Counted from the first letter of the stretch, positions 27,993 to 37,919 are shown. The stretch is DNA of 64,000 bases from Escherichia coli (GCF_016026235.1 NZ_CP065613.1), one strand, 5' to 3'. Translations and numbers: made by a program. Notes: generated from the letters alone by a model not told the origin.

Positions 27993-28046
27993 GAACATTT
28001 ATATGTACAAATTTGAGCCTGGCTTATCGCCGGGCTTTTTTATGGC

Positions 28047-28163
28047 AAAAAAAAGCGGATCCTGGAGATCCGCAAAAGTTCACGTTGGCTTTAGTTATTC
28101 GAGTTGAGAAACTCTCGAAACGGGCAGTGACTTCAAGGGTTAAAAGAGGTGCCGCTCCGTTTC
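28047..28163 (-). ncRNA. oxyS: OxyS small regulatory RNA (oxidative stress, OxyR-induced)
   Basis: Minus-strand sequence gaaacggagcggcacctcttttaaccc...gcggatctccaggatccgc followed by a U run matches my recall of oxyS; divergent from oxyR. Confidence 0.8.
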
Positions 28164-28258
28164 TGTGAGCAATTATCAGTCAGAATGCTTGATAGGGATA
28201 ATCGTTCATTGCTATTCTACCTATCGCCATGAACTATCGTGGAGATGGAGGATGGATA

Positions 28259-29176
28259 ATGAATATTCGTGATCTTGAGTACCTGGTGGCATTGGCTGAA
28301 CACCGCCATTTTCGGCGTGCGGCAGATTCCTGCCACGTTAGCCAGCCGACGCTTAGCGGGCAAATTCGTAAGCTGGAAGATGAGCTGGGCGTGATGTTGC
28401 TGGAGCGGACCAGCCGTAAAGTGTTGTTCACCCAGGCGGGAATGCTGCTGGTGGATCAGGCGCGTACCGTGCTGCGTGAGGTGAAAGTCCTTAAAGAGAT
28501 GGCAAGCCAGCAGGGCGAGACGATGTCCGGACCGCTGCATATTGGTTTGATTCCCACGGTTGGACCGTACCTGCTACCGCATATTATCCCGATGCTGCAC
28601 CAGACCTTTCCAAAGCTGGAAATGTATCTGCATGAAGCACAGACCCACCAGTTACTGGCGCAACTGGACAGCGGCAAACTCGATTGCGTGATCCTCGCGC
28701 TGGTGAAAGAGAGCGAAGCATTCATTGAAGTGCCGTTGTTTGATGAGCCAATGTTGCTGGCTATCTATGAAGACCACCCGTGGGCGAACCGCGAATGCGT
28801 ACCGATGGCCGATCTGGCTGGGGAAAAACTGCTGATGCTGGAAGATGGTCACTGTTTGCGCGATCAGGCAATGGGTTTCTGTTTTGAAGCCGGGGCGGAT
28901 GAAGATACACACTTCCGCGCGACCAGCCTGGAAACTCTGCGCAACATGGTGGCGGCAGGTAGCGGGATCACTTTACTGCCTGCGCTGGCTGTGCCGCCGG
29001 AGCGCAAACGCGATGGGGTTGTTTATCTGCCGTGCATTAAGCCGGAACCACGCCGCACTATTGGCCTGGTTTATCGTCCTGGCTCACCGCTGCGCAGCCG
29101 CTATGAGCAGCTGGCAGAGGCCATCCGCGCAAGAATGGATGGCCATTTCGATAAAGTGTTAAAACAGGCGGTTTAA
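28259..29176 (+). CDS. oxyR: LysR-family hydrogen peroxide-responsive regulator
   Basis: ORF 28229..29176, trimmed to the ATG giving [10 protein letters not shown] and the 305 aa K-12 length. Confidence 0.95.
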
Positions 29177-30559
29177 ACCGTTTAACGCAGCTACCCGATA
29201 GGCTTCCGCCATCGTCGGGTAGTTAAAGGTGGTGTTGACGAAGTACTCAATAGTGTTGCCGCCACCTTTCTGTTCCATAATCGCCTGACCGATATGAATA
29301 ATCTCGGCAGCGCGCTCGCCAAAGCAGTGAATGCCCAGAATCTCTTTTGTTTCCCGATGGAACAAAATTTTCAGCGTGCCCACGTTCATGCCGACGATTT
29401 GTGCACGTGCCAGATGTTTGAACTGGGCGCGGCCCACTTCATATGGCACTTTCATCGCGGTCAGCTGCTGTTCGGTTTTGCCCACAGAGCTGATTTCCGG
29501 GATGGTGTAAATGCCTGTAGGGATATCTTCAATCAGATGCGCGGTGGCTTCGCCTTTTACCAGCGCCTGCGCGGCAATGCGCCCCTGGTCATAGGCCGCT
29601 GATGCCAGGCTCGGATAACCAATCACGTCGCCCACCGCGTAAACGTGCGGCTGTGCGGTCTGATACATGCTGTTGACCTTCAGCTGTCCGCGACTGTCAG
29701 TTTCCAGCCCAATGTTCTGTAACGCCAGCGAATCGGTATTACCGGTACGACCGTTGGCATAGAGCAGGCAGTCAGCTTTCAGTTTTTTACCCGACTTCAG
29801 ATGCATGATCACACCGTCGTCACAGCCTTCGATCTTCTCGTACTCTTCGTTGTGACGAATCACTACGCCACTGTTCCAGAAGTGATAGGAGAGAGAATCT
29901 GACATCTCTTGATCGAGAAATGCCAGCAGGCGATCGCGGGTGTTGATCAGATCCACTTTTACATCCATACCGCGGAAGATCGACGCATATTCACAGCCGA
30001 TCACTCCAGCACCATAGATAAGTACATGGCGCGGTTCGTGGTGCATGCTGAGAATTGAGTCGCTGTCGTAAATGCGTGGATGGGTGAAATCAACATCTGT
30101 TGGATGATATGGACGAGAGCCGCAGGCAATAACAAATTTTTCAGCGGTTAGTGTTTCAACGCTGCCGTCCGGGCAATCCAGCGCCAACGTATGCTCGTCA
30201 ACAAAGCGAGCGTTCCCCTGCAATATTTCACAGTGATTACGTTCGTAAAATCCCTGACGCATGCGCGTTTGTTGATTAATCACGTTATCGGCATGGTTAA
30301 GGATATCGGCAAAAGAAGAGCGGAGCAGTCGGGAATGGTCGCTGTATAGTGGGTTTTGATTGAATTCTATAATGCGGCTGACGGCGTGACGGAGAGCTTT
30401 CGACGGGATGGTGCCCCAGTGGGTGCAACCGCCGCCAACATTTTGATAACGCTCGATAACTGCGACGCGCGCACCTTGCTTAACTAGGCCCATTGCAGCG
30501 CCTTCGCCGCCGGGGCCGGAACCTATTACTATGGCATCGTAATCGTAGGAATGTGGCAT
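29159..30559 (-). CDS. sthA: Soluble pyridine nucleotide transhydrogenase
   Basis: 466 aa ORF with FAD-binding GSGPGG motif; convergent with oxyR and overlapping its 3' end. Confidence 0.95.
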
Positions 30560-30888
30560 GGTAGGGCTTACCTGTTCTTATACATAAAAGCAACAGAATG
30601 GTAACATTTTATCGCGGGTAAGCCAATTGATCCCCGTCATTAATCTGGCTATAGCGTGAGCGGCCTTTGCTTTGTCTGCCTCCTTCTTAACCCATTTATT
30701 CACTATTAATCGCTTTTTATTATGGCTGATAGTTTTATCTTGCCGAAGCGTGCTTTTTTGTTATTGTCTTTATGAAATCTTCTTATAAAACAAACATATA
30801 AATATTTTATATTGATGGGTTATTTGTATTTATACCATCAATAAAATCCGTTAATTAGCCTGTTTATAAGTGAATAAAGGAATAGCCG

Positions 30889-32055
30889 ATGATCGAACAC
30901 TATATTCGAGGGTTTGAGGAAGAACTGCGTGAGATCCGCCATCAGATCCACGAAAACCCGGAGCTGGGATTACAAGAATTTAAAACCAGTGCTTTGGTTG
31001 CGGAAAAGCTGCGTCAGTGGGGCTATGAAGTAGAGCAAGGACTGGCGACGACGGGGATAGTGGCCACGTTAAAAGTGGGCGACGGAGAGAAAAGTATTGG
31101 CCTGCGGGCGGATATGGATGCGCTGCCGATTTATGAAAATAGTGGCAAGCCCTGGGCCAGTAAACATCCTGGTTTAATGCACGCCTGCGGGCATGACGGG
31201 CATACCACCATACTGCTGGGGGCCGCGCGTTATTTTGCCGAAACCCGCCGTTTTAACGGCACGTTACGTCTTATCTTCCAGCCTGCGGAAGAGATGATTA
31301 ATGGCGGTGAGATCATGGTTAAAGAGGGGCTTTTTGATCATTTCCCCTGCGATGTCATTTTCGGCATGCATAACATGCCCGGTCTGCCGGTGGGTAAGTT
31401 TTATTTCCAGCCAGGGGCACTGATGGCGTCAATGGATCAGTTCCATATTACAGTTCGTGGTTGTGGCGGACACGGTGCGATCCCGCACAAAGCCATCGAT
31501 CCGGTGCTAGTTGCCGCACATATCACCACCGCATTACAAAGCATTGTGTCACGCAATGTCGATCCGCTGGAAGCGGCGGTAATTACCGTCGGCAGCATTG
31601 TTGCGGGTGAGGCGGCTAACGTCATTCCTGACAGTGCTGAGATGAAAATCAGCGTCCGCTCTCTTAGCCGCGATACCCGACAACTTCTTCTGACCCGTAT
31701 TCCTGCTCTGGCACAAGCCCAGGCTGCCAGCTTTGGCGCTACGGCTGAGGTTACGCATGTTAACGGTACACCAGTATTAGTAAATGACGAGGAGATGGCG
31801 CGCTTCGCCTGGCAGGTGGCGTGTAAAACGTTTGGTGAAGATCGGGCCGAGTTTGGCATCAAGCCTCTGATGGGCAGTGAAGATTTCTCTTTCATGCTGG
31901 AAGCCCAACCCAAAGGCGGTTTCCTGTTATTCGGTAATGGCGATGTCGGGGAAGGTTCCTGCATGGTGCATAACCCGGGTTACGACTTCAACGATGCAAG
32001 TCTGGTCCCGGCAAGCAGCTACTGGGGCGCACTGGTAGAAGCCTGGCTGCAATAA
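30889..32055 (+). CDS. M20D-family amidohydrolase (hippurate hydrolase / N-acyl-amino acid amidohydrolase-like)
   Basis: 388 aa ORF with aggaa RBS; HACGHDGH metal-binding motif and overall layout typical of M20D aminoacylases; no gene sits here in K-12 as I recall. Confidence 0.85.
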   Translation: MIEHYIRGFEEELREIRHQIHENPELGLQEFKTSALVAEKLRQWGYEVEQGLATTGIVATLKVGDGEKSIGLRADMDALPIYENSGKPWASKHPGLMHACGHDGHTTILLGAARYFAETRRFNGTLRLIFQPAEEMINGGEIMVKEGLFDHFPCDVIFGMHNMPGLPVGKFYFQPGALMASMDQFHITVRGCGGHGAIPHKAIDPVLVAAHITTALQSIVSRNVDPLEAAVITVGSIVAGEAANVIPDSAEMKISVRSLSRDTRQLLLTRIPALAQAQAASFGATAEVTHVNGTPVLVNDEEMARFAWQVACKTFGEDRAEFGIKPLMGSEDFSFMLEAQPKGGFLLFGNGDVGEGSCMVHNPGYDFNDASLVPASSYWGALVEAWLQ

Positions 32056-32097
32056 ATAAAACAACACACAACAACACTTTTTGGCAAGGAACATGGA

Positions 32098-33414
32098 ATG
32101 ACGGCGATCGTAAATGAAACCGTGAGTGTGAAGAAAAAGCCCAGCGGCAGGCGGGTGATTTTTGCCTCGGCGTTTGGCAATGCGCTCGAATTTTTTGATT
32201 TTGGCGTTTACAACTTTTTTGTGGTCTATATCAGTACACTTTTCTTCCCACCCAGCGCTGATCACAATGTCGCGCTGTTACTGGCATTTGCAACGTTTGG
32301 CGTGAGTTTTTTTATGCGCCCGCTTGGTGGAATTATCGTCGGGGCCTGGGCCGATCGTTTCGGACGCAAACCCGCGATGGTGTTCACTATTGCCCTGATG
32401 AGCCTCGGCACGTTGATGATTGGCATTGCGCCGACGTATGCGACGGCGGGCTATTGGGGAACGGCAACTCTGGTACTTGCTCGTTTGATTCAGGGTGTTG
32501 CAGCAGGCGGTGAAGTTGGGGCTTCAATGTCGCTACTGGTGGAGTCAGCTCCGGCAAATCGTCGCGGTTTTTACAGCAGTTGGTCACTGGCGACTCAAGG
32601 CCTGGCAACAACTTTTGGAGGTGTTGTCGCTTTAGGTTTAAGTGCATGGCTGCCCTTTGCGACCGGTTCAGAAACCGTCATGGCTGAATGGGGCTGGCGT
32701 GTGCCGTTTTTTATTGGCGTGTTATTAGCGCCTGTCGGCTGTTGGTTGCGTTTGAGTCTGGAAAATGATGTTCCTGAGCCAGCACATAATAAGAAGGCCG
32801 CAGCCAGCGAAAGCGCCTTCTCCTTACTTATGCAACATAAAGCGACTATCGCTAACGGTATCTTGCTCGCTATTGGTAGCACGGTCGCAACCTATATCTC
32901 CCTCTTTTATTACGGTACATGGGCGGCGAAGTATTTAGGAATGAACCAAAACTATTCTCATGCAGCGATGTTACTGGCGGGCGTTATTACGTTTGTGGGT
33001 GCGCTGCTGGTGGGGATGTTGTGCGATTCGGTCGGGCGTAAAAAGCTGATTTTAATCTCCCGTGTGATGGTGCTGATCTGTAGCTGGCCGTCATTCTGGC
33101 TGTTGGTGAATTACCCAAGCCCTGGCATGTTGCTGACGGTGGTTTTCGTGATGGTCAGCTTTACCACGCTTGGCGGTGTGCCAGTGATGTTGTTGATCTC
33201 TGAACTGTTGCCGAAACGGATTCGGGCATTGGGTTTTGCGCTGGTTTATAGCATTGGTGTGGCAATCTTTGGCGGTTTTGCTCAATATTTCGCTACGCAA
33301 TCCATCGTGTTGCTGGATAGTTTGACGGCTCCGGCGTGGTATCTGGGTGGAGGCACGTTGCTGTCGATGTTGGCGTTGTTGTACGTAAAAGAACCGGCCA
33401 AAGAATTGCAGTAA
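32098..33414 (+). CDS. MFS transporter, metabolite:H+ symporter (MHS) family
   Basis: 438 aa hydrophobic ORF with the MHS signature [13 protein letters not shown] and ADRFGRK loop motif; 42 bp downstream of the amidohydrolase, same strand. Confidence 0.85.
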
Positions 33415-33463
33415 ATATGTTTTATTGCGTTACCGTTCATTCACAATACTGGAGCAATCCAGT

Positions 33464-34168
33464 ATGTTCATTCTCTGGTATAGTGCCAGCAGTACTTTTG
33501 GCAAGGATTCAGACATCGTGATGGGCGTAAGAGCGCAACAAAAAGAAAAAACCCGCCGTTCGCTGGTGGAAGCCGCATTTAGCCAATTAAGTGCTGAACG
33601 CAGCTTCGCCAGCCTGAGTTTGCGTGAAGTGGCGCGTGAAGCGGGCATTGCTCCCACCTCTTTTTATCGGCATTTCCGAGACGTAGACGAACTGGGTCTG
33701 ACCATGGTTGATGAGAGCGGTTTAATGCTACGCCAACTCATGCGCCAGGCGCGTCAGCGTATCGCCAAAGGCGGGAGTGTGATCCGCACCTCGGTCTCCA
33801 CATTTATGGAGTTCATCGGTAATAATCCTAACGCCTTCCGGTTATTATTGCGGGAACGCTCCGGCACCTCCGCTGCGTTTCGTGCCGCCGTTGCGCGTGA
33901 AATTCAGCACTTCATTGCGGAACTTGCGGACTATCTGGAACTCGAAAACCATATGCCGCGTGCGTTTACTGAAGCGCAAGCCGAAGCAATGGTGACAATT
34001 GTCTTCAGTGCGGGTGCCGAGGCGTTGGACGTCGGCGTTGAACAACGTCGGCAATTAGAAGAGCGACTGGTACTGCAACTGCGAATGATTTCGAAAGGGG
34101 CTTATTACTGGTATCGCCGTGAACAAGAGAAAACCGCAATTATTCCGGGAAATGTGAAGGACGAGTAA
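33464..34168 (+). CDS. fabR: TetR-family repressor of unsaturated fatty acid biosynthesis
   Basis: ORF 33425..34168; start set at the ATG giving MFILWYS (234 aa form); an alternative downstream start giving MGVRAQQ would make 215 aa. Confidence 0.88.
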
Positions 34169-36035: not shown

Positions 36036-37919
36036 ATGATTAAAAAAGCTTCGCTGCTGACGGCGTGTTCTGTCACAGCCTTTTCCGCTTGGGCACAGGA
36101 TACCAGCCCGGATACTCTCGTCGTTACTGCTAACCGTTTTCAGCAGCCAGTAAATACTGTCCTTGCACCTACTGATATTGTTACCCGTGAGGATATTCAA
36201 CGCTGGCAGTCGAAAGACCTCAACGATGTTATGAGTCATCTCCCCGGTGTAAATATCTCTCAAACTGGTGGAATGGGGACGAGTTCTTCTCTGTATGTTC
36301 GTGGCACTGAATCGCGCCATGTTTTAGTGTTGATTGACGGTGTGCCGATGGCTCGTGCCGGTATCGACAATGCAATTGATATTAGCCAGTTCCCGGTATC
36401 ACTTGTACAGCGTGTTGAATATATTCGTGGGCCGCGTTCTGCCGTTTATGGTTCTGGTGCCATCGGAGGTGTGGTGAACATTATTACAATGAGTAATGAT
36501 GAGAAAGCTCAGATCAACGCAGGAATGGGTACAAATGGTTATCAAGCCTATGATGGGGTAATAAATAAACGTTTTGGCGATACGATGGTAACAGCAGCAG
36601 GTGCTTACCAGACGACCAAAGGTTTTAACATTCAGCCTGGCTCACCATACAGTGGTGATAGCGATCGCGATGGATATCGCAACAAACTTTTCTGGGGGGG
36701 GCTGCAGCATAAGTTTAACGATAACTTCTCGGGGTTCTTCCGTGGTTACAGCTACACAGCTAATAATGATTACGACCAGGGCTCGATGTATGGTTCTGCT
36801 ACTGGCAACGAAGAAGCTCAGAATTACAACCAGTCCTGGGATACTGGCCTACGCTATAACTCCGGCATCTATTCGTCTCAGTTAATTGCTAACTATCAAC
36901 GACTCAAGAATTATAACTACACAAATAATCTTGGTCGTTATGCGGGAGATGCCACCCTGGATGACATGGAACAGCGTTATATTCAGTGGGGTAATAGCAT
37001 TGAGGTAGGGCATGGTGCAATTAGCGGCGGGATCGATTGGAAACAGGAAAAACTGACGTCCAGCAGCATTACAAAATCAGATGATTACGAACGCGATACC
37101 ACCGGGTTATACCTGACTGGACAGCAACAGATTTCCAATGTGACTTTGGAAGCTTCTGGCCGAGAAGATCATGATGAACAGTTTGGCTGGCATGGTACCT
37201 GGCAGACAGCTGCTGGCTGGGAGTTTATTGATGGCTACCAGGCAACACTTTCTTACGGTACCAGTTTTCTTTCGCCTTCTCTTGGACAGCAATACGGGGC
37301 TGCTCGCTTTGCTTCAATTTATGGTCCTGGTATTGCAGCCAACCCAAATTTGAAGCCAGAAGAATCTAAACAGTGGGAGATTGGAATTGAGGGGGTAACT
37401 GGGACTCTGGATTGGCGGCTCTCAGGATATCGTTATGAAATTCAAAACCTGATTGATTATAAAAGCATAAATAATGTCAACCAGTACATTAATGTGAAAT
37501 CAGCCACGATTAAAGGGCTGGAATGGACGGGAAATATTACAACCGGTCCTGTTGAACATCGCTTGACGTTACAATATGTTGACCCGCGCGATGATGAAAC
37601 AGATAAAGTGCTGTACCGTCGGGCAAAACAGCAGGTTAAGTACGAGTTGACTGGACAAGCTTATGGTTTCGAATGGGACGTTTCTTACCAATATATAGGT
37701 CAACGATACGACAACGCTTATGACGAGACCTCTGGCTCATCACATACAGTTAAATTAGGCGGTGTGAGCTTGTGGGATCTTGCGGTTGCATATCCGGTCA
37801 CCTCTCACCTGACAGTTCGTGGTAAAATAGCCAACCTGTTCGACAAAGATTATGAGACAGTCTATGGCTACCAAACTGCAGGACGGGAATACACCTTGTC
37901 TGGCAGCTACACCTTCTGA
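36036..37919 (+). CDS. btuB: TonB-dependent outer membrane vitamin B12 receptor; divergent mosaic allele
   Basis: ORF 35991..37919, trimmed to the ATG giving MIKKASLLTA; signal peptide, TonB box DTLVVTANR and the last 53 aa match my recall of K-12 BtuB, but the central region is strongly divergent and the protein is 627 aa against 614 aa. Confidence 0.85.
   Translation: MIKKASLLTACSVTAFSAWAQDTSPDTLVVTANRFQQPVNTVLAPTDIVTREDIQRWQSKDLNDVMSHLPGVNISQTGGMGTSSSLYVRGTESRHVLVLIDGVPMARAGIDNAIDISQFPVSLVQRVEYIRGPRSAVYGSGAIGGVVNIITMSNDEKAQINAGMGTNGYQAYDGVINKRFGDTMVTAAGAYQTTKGFNIQPGSPYSGDSDRDGYRNKLFWGGLQHKFNDNFSGFFRGYSYTANNDYDQGSMYGSATGNEEAQNYNQSWDTGLRYNSGIYSSQLIANYQRLKNYNYTNNLGRYAGDATLDDMEQRYIQWGNSIEVGHGAISGGIDWKQEKLTSSSITKSDDYERDTTGLYLTGQQQISNVTLEASGREDHDEQFGWHGTWQTAAGWEFIDGYQATLSYGTSFLSPSLGQQYGAARFASIYGPGIAANPNLKPEESKQWEIGIEGVTGTLDWRLSGYRYEIQNLIDYKSINNVNQYINVKSATIKGLEWTGNITTGPVEHRLTLQYVDPRDDETDKVLYRRAKQQVKYELTGQAYGFEWDVSYQYIGQRYDNAYDETSGSSHTVKLGGVSLWDLAVAYPVTSHLTVRGKIANLFDKDYETVYGYQTAGREYTLSGSYTF

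Follow-up and report, generated by a model that had tools for sequence, protein, structure and literature searches.

What occupies the space between sthA and fabR in Escherichia coli, and was it gained by the strains that have it or lost by those that do not? In K-12 the two genes are divergent neighbours. In the 64,000-nucleotide stretch of E. coli DNA analysed here (GCF_016026235.1, NZ_CP065613.1; referred to below as the window), they are separated by a cassette of two genes on the same strand, encoding an amidohydrolase of the M20D family and a transporter of the major facilitator superfamily (MFS) that resembles the metabolite/H+ symporters (MHS). A preliminary description of the window had presented the pair as a novelty, with an implied insertion. 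On balance we favour a different account, in which the cassette is an ancestral Escherichia operon, normally silent, that serves to take up and hydrolyse an N-acyl or N-aroyl amino acid and that was lost once by deletion.

The gene order in the window is argH(+), oxyR(+), sthA(-), an open reading frame (ORF) of 388 codons (+), a second of 438 codons (+), fabR(+), yijD(+), trmA(-) and btuB(+); coordinates are collected in Table 1. In K-12 MG1655, sthA and fabR are 330 bp apart and the cassette is absent, as the preliminary description had stated. A blastn comparison of K-12 with the window shows homology over 30001-30678 and then from 33380 onwards, which places the right breakpoint inside the transporter gene. 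The 2,701 bp between these points (30679-33379) are replaced in K-12 by 73 bp (L001 1980-2052). K-12 therefore keeps the last 35 bp of the transporter gene ahead of fabR, still in frame up to the stop codon, and the residues encoded by this remnant align with the C-terminus of the family, (K/D)-E-(T)-A-G-(R/K)-A-L-(D), as found in nine transporter homologues from Burkholderia, Paraburkholderia, Pseudomonas and others. E. coli SMS-3-5, which we take to belong to phylogroup F, has the same junctions and the same filler, apart from three substitutions and one indel.

The cassette is also present in Escherichia albertii. Strain NBRC 107761 has the identical layout oxyR-sthA-amidohydrolase-transporter-fabR-yijD, with proteins that are 97% and 96% identical to those of the window. 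Its cassette is 90.5% identical at the DNA level, compared with 91.2% for the flanking sthA and 92.6% for trmA. The cassette has thus diverged to the same degree as the flanking core genes, as vertical descent from a common ancestor predicts. The species-level scan, with one genome per species, ran to 600 pattern hits, of which the best 80 loci were kept, and the polarity of the event is taken from E. albertii and from the scar; further outgroups were sought among contigs encoding an identical OxyR, and all ten were placed within E. coli by sthA identity. Because of the 35-bp remnant, its alignment with the family C-terminus and the synteny in E. albertii, the K-12 state is the derived one. 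Judged from one outgroup and the scar, the K-12 layout is derived by deletion, and the ancestor shared by E. coli and E. albertii already had the cassette. The insertion implied by the preliminary description does not survive this comparison, given that K-12 retains the end of the transporter gene and E. albertii has the cassette at the same site. The locus is a textbook example of the point that 'absent from K-12' does not mean 'acquired': here the reference strain carries a recognisable deletion scar.

The 73-bp filler was also examined as a possible product of degraded cassette ends, and this was rejected: local alignments to the leader, to the 3' end of the transporter gene and to the whole cassette are not significant (z <= 2.4). 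As a separate observation, the reading frame of the transporter remnant in K-12 is open for about 50 codons upstream, through the filler, and includes a hydrophobic stretch (...LLCLFLTFALTFYWIFIDD...); no coding sequence is annotated there.

Comparison with K-12 and with a large genome panel fixes the boundaries at 30679 and 33379 and establishes presence or absence in 5,426 complete E. coli genomes. The cassette interior is found in 1,507 of these (near full length in 1,505) and a K-12-type scar junction, at 95-100% identity, in 3,918. Across complete E. coli genomes the locus is essentially two-state, carrying either the cassette or the K-12 scar. The scar allele makes up about 72% of the genomes, K-12 and SMS-3-5 among them. 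The cassette alleles fall into three groups by identity to the window. Only 5 genomes reach at least 99%, with FDAARGOS_943 identical over the cassette interior; about 420, including O157:H7 EDL933 and EC4115 and an O145 strain, are 95-99% identical; and about 1,082, including 536, 83972 and strain O18, are 90-95% identical. LF82, the ST131 strain EC958 and ATCC 25922 are carriers as well. We take 536, 83972, LF82, ST131 and ATCC 25922 to be phylogroup B2, O157:H7 and O145:H28 to be phylogroup E, and K-12 to be phylogroup A. The cassette belongs to the small, non-island differences by which K-12-type E. coli can be told from the lineages of 536, ST131 and O157:H7.

A second two-gene indel is found some 2.5 kb away, consisting in many strains of manD (D-mannonate dehydratase) and an MFS transporter gene between argH and oxyR. 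The window (argH-oxyR gap 27993-28258) and K-12 lack this pair, which is present in ATCC 25922 (L094 16102-18666) and RM13322 (L003 1244-3808). All four combinations of the manD indel and the sthA-fabR cassette occur among the contigs encoding an identical OxyR, all of them E. coli, and recombination has therefore reshuffled the two sites. This recombination is also the reason why one deletion allele is spread over unrelated phylogroups. The history that we propose would start with a cassette in the ancestor of E. coli and E. albertii, followed by a single 2.7-kb deletion, after which the scar allele would have been reshuffled by recombination.

One genome was considered as a third state of the locus and rejected. 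In RM13322 (NZ_CP050498.1) the K-12 scar is followed by about 0.8 kb of C/A/T-rich low-complexity sequence with long poly-C runs (L003 6662-7468), which replaces fabR and the 5' part of yijD. This stretch almost certainly arose during assembly or polishing of the public record and does not represent a real allele.

The first gene of the cassette encodes an enzyme that is clearly placed at the family level. It scores 358.9 bits against TIGR01891 'amidohydrolases' (curated cutoff 153.75), covering residues 13-372, and the precomputed Pfam assignments of identical or near-identical proteins are Peptidase_M20 (PF01546) and M20_dimer (PF07687). In M20D enzymes the metal-ligand and catalytic residues are the Cys and His of HACGHD, the two Glu of QPAEE, the His of GMHN and the C-terminal His of VHNP. 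The HACGHDGH motif named in the preliminary description is present (as MHACGHDGH), and together with QPAEE, GMHN and VHNP it is conserved in an alignment with the solved structures 1ysj, 1xmb, 6slf and 4ewt. The closest of these are YxeP of Bacillus subtilis (1ysj, E 2e-71), ILL2 of Arabidopsis (1xmb, 5e-69) and the N-acyl-glutamine aminoacylase AgaA of Corynebacterium (6slf, 7e-67); at the sequence level these matches are decisive for the fold. They have the Cys/His/Glu/His/His metal-site and catalytic-Glu motifs in common with the E. coli enzyme, and all three hydrolyse N-acyl amino-acid conjugates. They are however similarly distant from it, so that they do not discriminate between acyl or amino-acid specificities, and their genomic contexts differ. 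The protein is thus a member of the M20D family with intact catalytic motifs, and is predicted to be a metal-dependent hydrolase of an N-acyl-L-amino acid.

Could it instead be a peptidase, either a carboxypeptidase or a dipeptidase like CpsA of Sulfolobus or Sapep of Staphylococcus aureus, in a cassette that scavenges small peptides? The M20 peptidase Sapep (4ewt) does match at E 1.5e-64, and the NCBIfam model for CpsA (NF040868) gives 335.4 bits, but its cutoff is 500 (the model for the deacetylase DoeB2, NF038260, gives 321.8 against 550), and the better structural matches are the acyl-amino-acid hydrolases YxeP, ILL2 and AgaA. Furthermore, MHS transporters are known for organic acids and osmolytes and not for peptides, and E. 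coli already has the Dpp, Opp, Tpp and POT peptide systems. We regard a peptidase as decidedly unlikely.

By its sequence the enzyme is on an isolated branch of a very large family. Among the matches listed, its closest relatives outside Escherichia are a Silvimonas protein (63% identity) and representatives of 50% clusters (55-59%). The genes around these relatives are heterogeneous: the Silvimonas gene has no transporter beside it, and downstream of a relative with 55% identity lies an MFS gene of the DHA2 type. No consistent catabolic partner emerged from the neighbourhoods compared. A 59%-identical relative (P0122, from a metagenome-assembled genome, contigs L088/L089) lies between a divergent gene of the choloylglycine-hydrolase/penicillin-V-amidase family and a downstream PF03458 'Gly_transporter' gene, which hints at glycine-conjugate metabolism in that organism; the locus adjoins fragments of insertion sequences (IS), and this is a single context on two near-identical contigs. 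Proteins from Shigella dysenteriae and S. boydii are also among the near-identical matches.

The second gene encodes the transporter, for which the best family is TIGR00883 'metabolite/H+ symporter' (TC 2.A.1.6; E 1.1e-96, residues 27-416, positions 1-392 of the 400 in the model). The Pfam domains, MFS_1 and Sugar_tr, are general ones, and the best description of the protein is that of a divergent member resembling the MHS transporters. RefSeq names it 'citrate-proton symporter', after the TcuC/CitA symporters for tricarballylate or citrate and protons, which have the same MFS subfamily architecture. The TcuC/CitA model (NF011656) is the second-best match, at 284.8 bits, which does not reach the cutoff of 445. 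On these scores the RefSeq name is a family-level label and not supported as a function. Unlike TcuC/CitA, the transporter is consistently paired with an amidohydrolase and not with tcu or cit genes, both here and in nine distant loci, and for this reason its substrate likely differs from theirs.

These nine loci come from across the proteobacteria: Paraburkholderia ginsengiterrae, Burkholderia sp. Leaf177 (twice), B. multivorans, Candidatus Burkholderia verschuerenii, Pseudomonas sputi, P. plecoglossicida, Pseudochelatococcus and a metagenome-assembled genome. In all of them the amidohydrolase gene is followed by the MHS gene on the same strand. A divergent LysR regulator upstream of the pair was confirmed at one (L007), and LysR-like tblastn matches lie upstream at three more; no other catabolic gene is consistently linked to the pair in the loci compared. 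In E. coli the 42-bp spacer that separates the two genes is 100% identical in four other copies compared, and no terminator-like site was found in it. The single operon suggested in the preliminary description is consistent with the invariant spacer, with the lack of a terminator-like site in it and with the gene order that recurs in the nine loci; the amidohydrolase and the transporter plausibly form one transcription unit.

We give little credence to the view that the two genes are unrelated neighbours, a symporter for citrate or tricarballylate and protons next to an amidohydrolase for some endogenous substrate. It would fit the RefSeq label, the second place of TcuC among the NCBIfam models, and a 2010 synteny survey, the table of which files the locus under 'citrate metabolism' (PMC2831201). 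The TcuC score is nevertheless far under its cutoff, the pair order recurs in distant genomes, a comparable MFS-HipO pair is co-regulated in Pseudomonas putida, and the spacer is invariant and without a terminator.

Among models with experimental support, that P. putida module is the best one, by analogy, for the way in which the pair in E. coli may work. In KT2440 a hippurate-responsive LysR regulator, PP_2701, is described as driving the MFS gene PP_2703 and the hydrolase gene PP_2704 (HipO), and the purified PP_2704 as cleaving hippurate far better than N-acetyl-L-alanine (bioRxiv 10.64898/2025.12.09.693157). Compared by description, the two systems have in common an M20D-type amidohydrolase gene beside an MFS gene, co-regulated in P. 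putida. Unlike the E. coli cassette, the P. putida module has the MFS gene upstream of hipO and includes a LysR regulator. The Pseudomonas homologues that were retrieved are 52% (enzyme) and 36% (transporter) identical to the E. coli pair. A search with the P. plecoglossicida enzyme returned other Pseudomonas orthologues and no PP_2704, and the context of this locus (L020) differs from the KT2440 arrangement.

Two other known systems are useful for comparison. The abgABT genes of E. coli K-12, with their regulator abgR, serve to import p-aminobenzoyl-glutamate, which is then hydrolysed by an M20-family enzyme, and they are cryptic or poorly expressed in the wild type. The cassette would be similar in that a transporter imports an N-aroyl amino acid and a cytoplasmic M20 hydrolase cleaves it. 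It differs in that the transporter of the abg system belongs to the AbgT family and not to the MFS, the hydrolase has two subunits (AbgA and AbgB) and the system has its own LysR regulator; the relation is far more distant than that to YxeP, ILL2 or AgaA, the AbgB-type structure 3io1 matching at E 2e-35. The second system is HipO of Campylobacter jejuni, a hippuricase (EC 3.5.1.32) that is likewise in the M20D subfamily and from which the labels 'hippuricase' and 'hippurate hydrolase' (K01451) on c4924 and its orthologues derive. To our knowledge, no MHS transporter accompanies hipO in C. jejuni. In contrast to C. jejuni, E. coli is scored hippuricase-negative, a cassette carrier included, as described next.

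The cassette corresponds to genes c4924 (annotated as a 'putative hippuricase') to c4926 of strain CFT073, so that it is not the novelty it was first taken for: it is annotated in 1,505 of the 5,426 genomes and occurs in at least three papers. The table of the 2010 survey mentioned above scores c4924-c4926 as absent from MG1655, present in CFT073, F11, 536, UTI89 and E2348/69, and negative in O157:H7 (PMC2831201). The last score conflicts with the cassette found here in O157:H7 genomes, and this discrepancy probably arises from a survey criterion that needed all three CFT073 ORFs. In another study hipO (K01451) is listed as a marker of a clade of uropathogenic E. coli (UPEC) linked to necrotising enterocolitis (PMC4819403). 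The cassette is thus already in use, without being understood, as a marker of UPEC and of clades at risk for this disease. A further paper lists ATCC 25922 as hippuricase-negative in a whole-cell assay with 4-hydroxyhippurate (PMC12635141). ATCC 25922 has an intact cassette, encoding the same proteins as that of LF82, and the hint of a 'hippuricase type' enzyme in the preliminary description is thus without phenotypic support.

We propose the following mechanism. Proton symport through the MHS-type protein would bring in an anionic L-amino acid with an N-acyl or N-aroyl group, for which hippurate, another conjugate of glycine or glutamine, an N-acetyl amino acid or a mercapturate are candidates. 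In the cytoplasm the M20D enzyme would then, at a binuclear metal site, cleave the amide bond, releasing a free amino acid as nitrogen or carbon source and a carboxylic acid. The import and deacylation first suggested for the pair remain plausible, with the M20D motifs intact and the hippurate module of P. putida as a parallel. That the substrate is an N-acylated amino acid, or a carboxylate amide closely related to one, is fairly likely. Hippurate specifically is possible but unlikely.

The cassette is preceded by a leader of 210 bp, aligned here among four E. coli lineages and E. albertii. The window differs from LF82 at 7 positions of the leader (K = 0.034) and from E. albertii at 12 (K = 0.059). 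At the adjacent synonymous rate (dS 0.17 and 0.32) the expected numbers are 32 and 54 (P ~1e-8 and 1e-14). The leader is selectively constrained, evolving about five times more slowly than the synonymous sites next to it. Within the leader is a palindrome, ATTGATGG-N16-CCATCAAT, in which one arm position varies (G/A) among lineages. A promoter scan found no consensus sigma-70 promoter on the plus strand of the leader, and Rfam gave no family in the leader or the cassette, with one chance-level match (E 0.32) inside the transporter gene on the opposite strand. A leader peptide was considered and rejected, since the candidate, a 17-codon ORF that begins at 30722, has no ATG in E. albertii.

Directly upstream of the palindrome is a 29-mer that links the leader to published work. 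The supplement of Luterbach and Mobley lists CTTATAAAACAAATATATAAATATTTTAT as a putative TosR motif, 78 bp upstream of CFT073 c4924 (PMC5956150). According to the same source, c4924 is among the five genes most induced on overproduction of TosR, a PapB-family protein (log2FC 6.6, about 100-fold), and TosR is predicted by the authors to bind AT-rich DNA and to antagonise silencing by H-NS and Lrp (PMC5956150). The operon, with no regulator of its own and behind a conserved leader of 28% GC, is probably silent in the laboratory through nucleoid-protein silencing. Another activator would switch it on, or else proteins with an affinity for AT-rich DNA, TosR in UPEC being an example. The conserved AT-rich leader and the strong response to TosR are a concrete handle for finding the inducing condition and the substrate.

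A more specific version of this proposal, which we consider speculative and rather unlikely, is that the cassette is a silenced scavenger of mammalian detoxification conjugates in urine or gut (hippurate, phenylacetylglutamine, another glycine or glutamine conjugate, or a mercapturate), anti-silenced in vivo and linked to niche. Nucleoid proteins would keep the AT-rich leader off, and PapB-family anti-silencers such as TosR, or an activator binding the palindrome, would switch it on. If this were true, retention in the lineages of 536, ST131 and O157:H7 and the one ancient loss in K-12-type lineages would mark a real niche difference that aids the fitness of extraintestinal pathogenic and enterohaemorrhagic E. 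coli. More generally, if the substrate is a host conjugate such as hippurate or phenylacetylglutamine, the cassette would be a lineage-specific metabolic trait tied to life in urine or gut.

Both genes of the cassette are under strong purifying selection. In comparisons of the window with E. albertii and with four further E. coli alleles, the amidohydrolase gene has a dN/dS of 0.02-0.07 (up to 0.074) and the transporter gene one of 0.015-0.047. The dS values in these comparisons range from 0.17 to 0.69; between the window and LF82 they are 0.17 for the amidohydrolase and 0.40 for the transporter, with 0.08 for sthA and fabR. We read the excess over the flanks as the result of weak codon-usage constraint in the cassette, and of recombination with cassette-free strains, which can homogenise the flanks and not the cassette interior. 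Of six other copies inspected, five (FDAARGOS_943, LF82, AF16, AVS0343 and ATCC 25922) have both ORFs intact, and in the sixth, from PapM-32-1, the transporter gene is broken. This baboon isolate has an internal stop in the transporter gene (L086 3399-4715), which RefSeq records as a pseudogene, and its cassette is a mosaic, with an amidohydrolase gene 99.6% identical and a transporter gene 95.4% identical to the window.

It is accordingly very improbable that the cassette is a dispensable relic in the course of being lost, now without function in the strains that keep it. Its loss from 72% of complete genomes without obvious cost, the internal stop in PapM-32-1 and its apparent silence in the laboratory (ATCC 25922 is hippuricase-negative and there is no consensus promoter) would suit a relic; a dN/dS of 0.015-0.074 in both genes, maintained between lineages that have diverged to dS 0.17-0.69, the constraint on the leader and the intact ORFs in five of six copies would not.

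The composition and surroundings of the cassette bear on how it arrived. Its coding regions have 53.4% (amidohydrolase) and 51.3% GC (transporter), against 52.1% for the window, and GC3 is also host-like. An ORF scan of the interval between sthA and fabR found no regulator, integrase or IS gene, and a repeat search found only short, chance-level repeats flanking the cassette. In sum it shows no integrase, transposase or IS, no tRNA or att target, no flanking repeats and no deviant coding composition. On the absence of regulator, integrase, IS and direct repeats, and on the host-like coding composition, the preliminary description was accurate. It had also described the 330 bp upstream as strongly AT-rich, which holds for the distal 210 of 329 bp (28.1% GC) and not for the 119 bp next to sthA, which are ordinary (44.5% GC). 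No plasmid copy was found in PLSDB, where the best match is a distantly related MFS-M20 pair on a Pantoea megaplasmid, at about 66% identity over 29% of the query.

Scarcely credible, in view of this, is an islet recently inserted between sthA and fabR by horizontal transfer into an ancestral K-12 layout: the patchy distribution across phylogroups, the AT-rich leader (as in many acquired genes) and nearest non-Escherichia homologues that are beta- or gammaproteobacterial and at most 63% identical, with no other Enterobacteriaceae among the best 80 loci kept, would suit it, but it is contradicted by the transporter remnant in K-12 and SMS-3-5 with its family C-terminus and by the E. albertii cassette, at the same site and as diverged as its flanks, and the host-like coding GC and GC3 and the lack of integrase, IS, tRNA, flanking repeat or plasmid copy also speak against it. 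An ancient transfer of the cassette into the Escherichia ancestor, by contrast, is likely.

Returning to the ancestral, silent operon for an acylated amino acid, several points weigh against it. On the historical side, the presence of the cassette in the ancestor of E. coli and E. albertii is read from a single outgroup plus the scar, and the 73-bp K-12 filler shows no significant similarity to the cassette and has no detectable source in the 64-kb window. On the functional side, the enzyme is only 55-63% identical to its nearest relatives outside Escherichia among the matches listed, and at that distance M20D specificity is not predictable. The transporter falls below the curated cutoff of every NCBIfam model, including TIGR00883 itself (324.4 bits against 443.45). 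Co-induction of the transporter with c4924 does not appear in the TosR tables consulted (PMC5956150), where c4924 is listed and c4926 is not. The negative test of ATCC 25922 means either that the operon was silent or that hippurate-type compounds are not the substrate. Finally, the searchable literature yielded no study of the pair in E. coli, whether biochemical or genetic, and no assay of the enzyme.

Part of this picture, the presence/absence polymorphism together with the annotations, is already public, and the families of both proteins are well known. What is added here is the scar that the deletion left in K-12, the finding that E. albertii has the cassette at the same site, the picture of a single event followed by recombination, the constraint on the leader, and the connection of an intact cassette with a hippuricase test that was negative. 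Nothing in the locus would surprise a specialist in E. coli genomics or M20 enzymes, and it is a fairly ordinary accessory locus.

Table 1. Features of the sthA-fabR region; positions are counted from the first nucleotide of the window.
Feature	Position	Strand	Remarks
sthA	29159-30559	-	ORF call
sthA-proximal intergenic part	30560-30678		common to K-12, 99.1% over 30001-30678 (blastn); 44.5% GC
Segment missing from K-12-type strains	30679-33379		2,701 bp; replaced there by the 73-bp filler; junctions by K-12 alignment
Cassette leader/control region	30679-30888	+	210 bp, 28.1% GC; AAGGA ribosome-binding site before the ATG
AT-rich 29-mer, putative TosR motif	30782-30810	+	one base off the motif listed for CFT073 c4924
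Palindrome ATTGATGG-N16-CCATCAAT, candidate operator	30811-30842		from position and alignment of lineages
M20D-family amidohydrolase/aminoacylase	30889-32055	+	388 aa; RefSeq 'M20 aminoacylase family protein'; CFT073 c4924 'putative hippuricase'
Spacer between amidohydrolase and transporter	32056-32097	+	42 bp; holds the ribosome-binding site of the transporter
MHS-type MFS transporter	32098-33414	+	438 aa; RefSeq 'citrate-proton symporter'
3' end of transporter ORF = deletion scar	33380-33414	+	35 bp kept in K-12 and SMS-3-5
Region upstream of fabR	33415-33517	+	common to K-12; weak hairpin 33446-33465, promoter-like site 33440-33468

The layout of the two ORFs agrees with that first described, including the co-directional transporter 42 bp downstream with the MHS signature quoted for it. 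The region upstream of fabR is 99-100% identical among cassette-bearing E. coli lineages. The RefSeq start of fabR is at 33518 and the ATG of an older, longer FabR is at 33464; the preliminary description ended the interval at 33463 because it used the older start. A 12-mer, TTTTGGCAAGGA, which includes the ribosome-binding site, occurs at 32079-32090 and 33496-33507, before the transporter and RefSeq fabR starts. Two occurrences in 3.3 kb are near the chance expectation, and the copies do not match the deletion breakpoints.

Two further observations concern other genes and genomes. The BtuB protein of the window (36036-37919, 627 aa) is only 57% identical to the standard E. coli BtuB, as in SMS-3-5 and ATCC 25922, whose proteins are 98% alike. 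The identity is 87% over the N-terminal 60 residues, 100% over the C-terminal 30 and 38-67% in the interior, and this btuB allele (at least 99% identity) is found in 282 of the 5,426 complete genomes, from diverse sources. The sequence pattern suggests that allelic replacement has affected the barrel and loops of this protein, the receptor for vitamin B12, E colicins and phage BF23. Lastly, ATCC 25922 (NZ_CP009072.1) has a large inversion relative to the K-12 order, from about 0.53 to 2.14 Mb, with rRNA operons at both ends: one end is on the murI side of an rrn operon at about 0.53 Mb, and at the other, at about 2.14 Mb, clpB abuts a second rrn operon.

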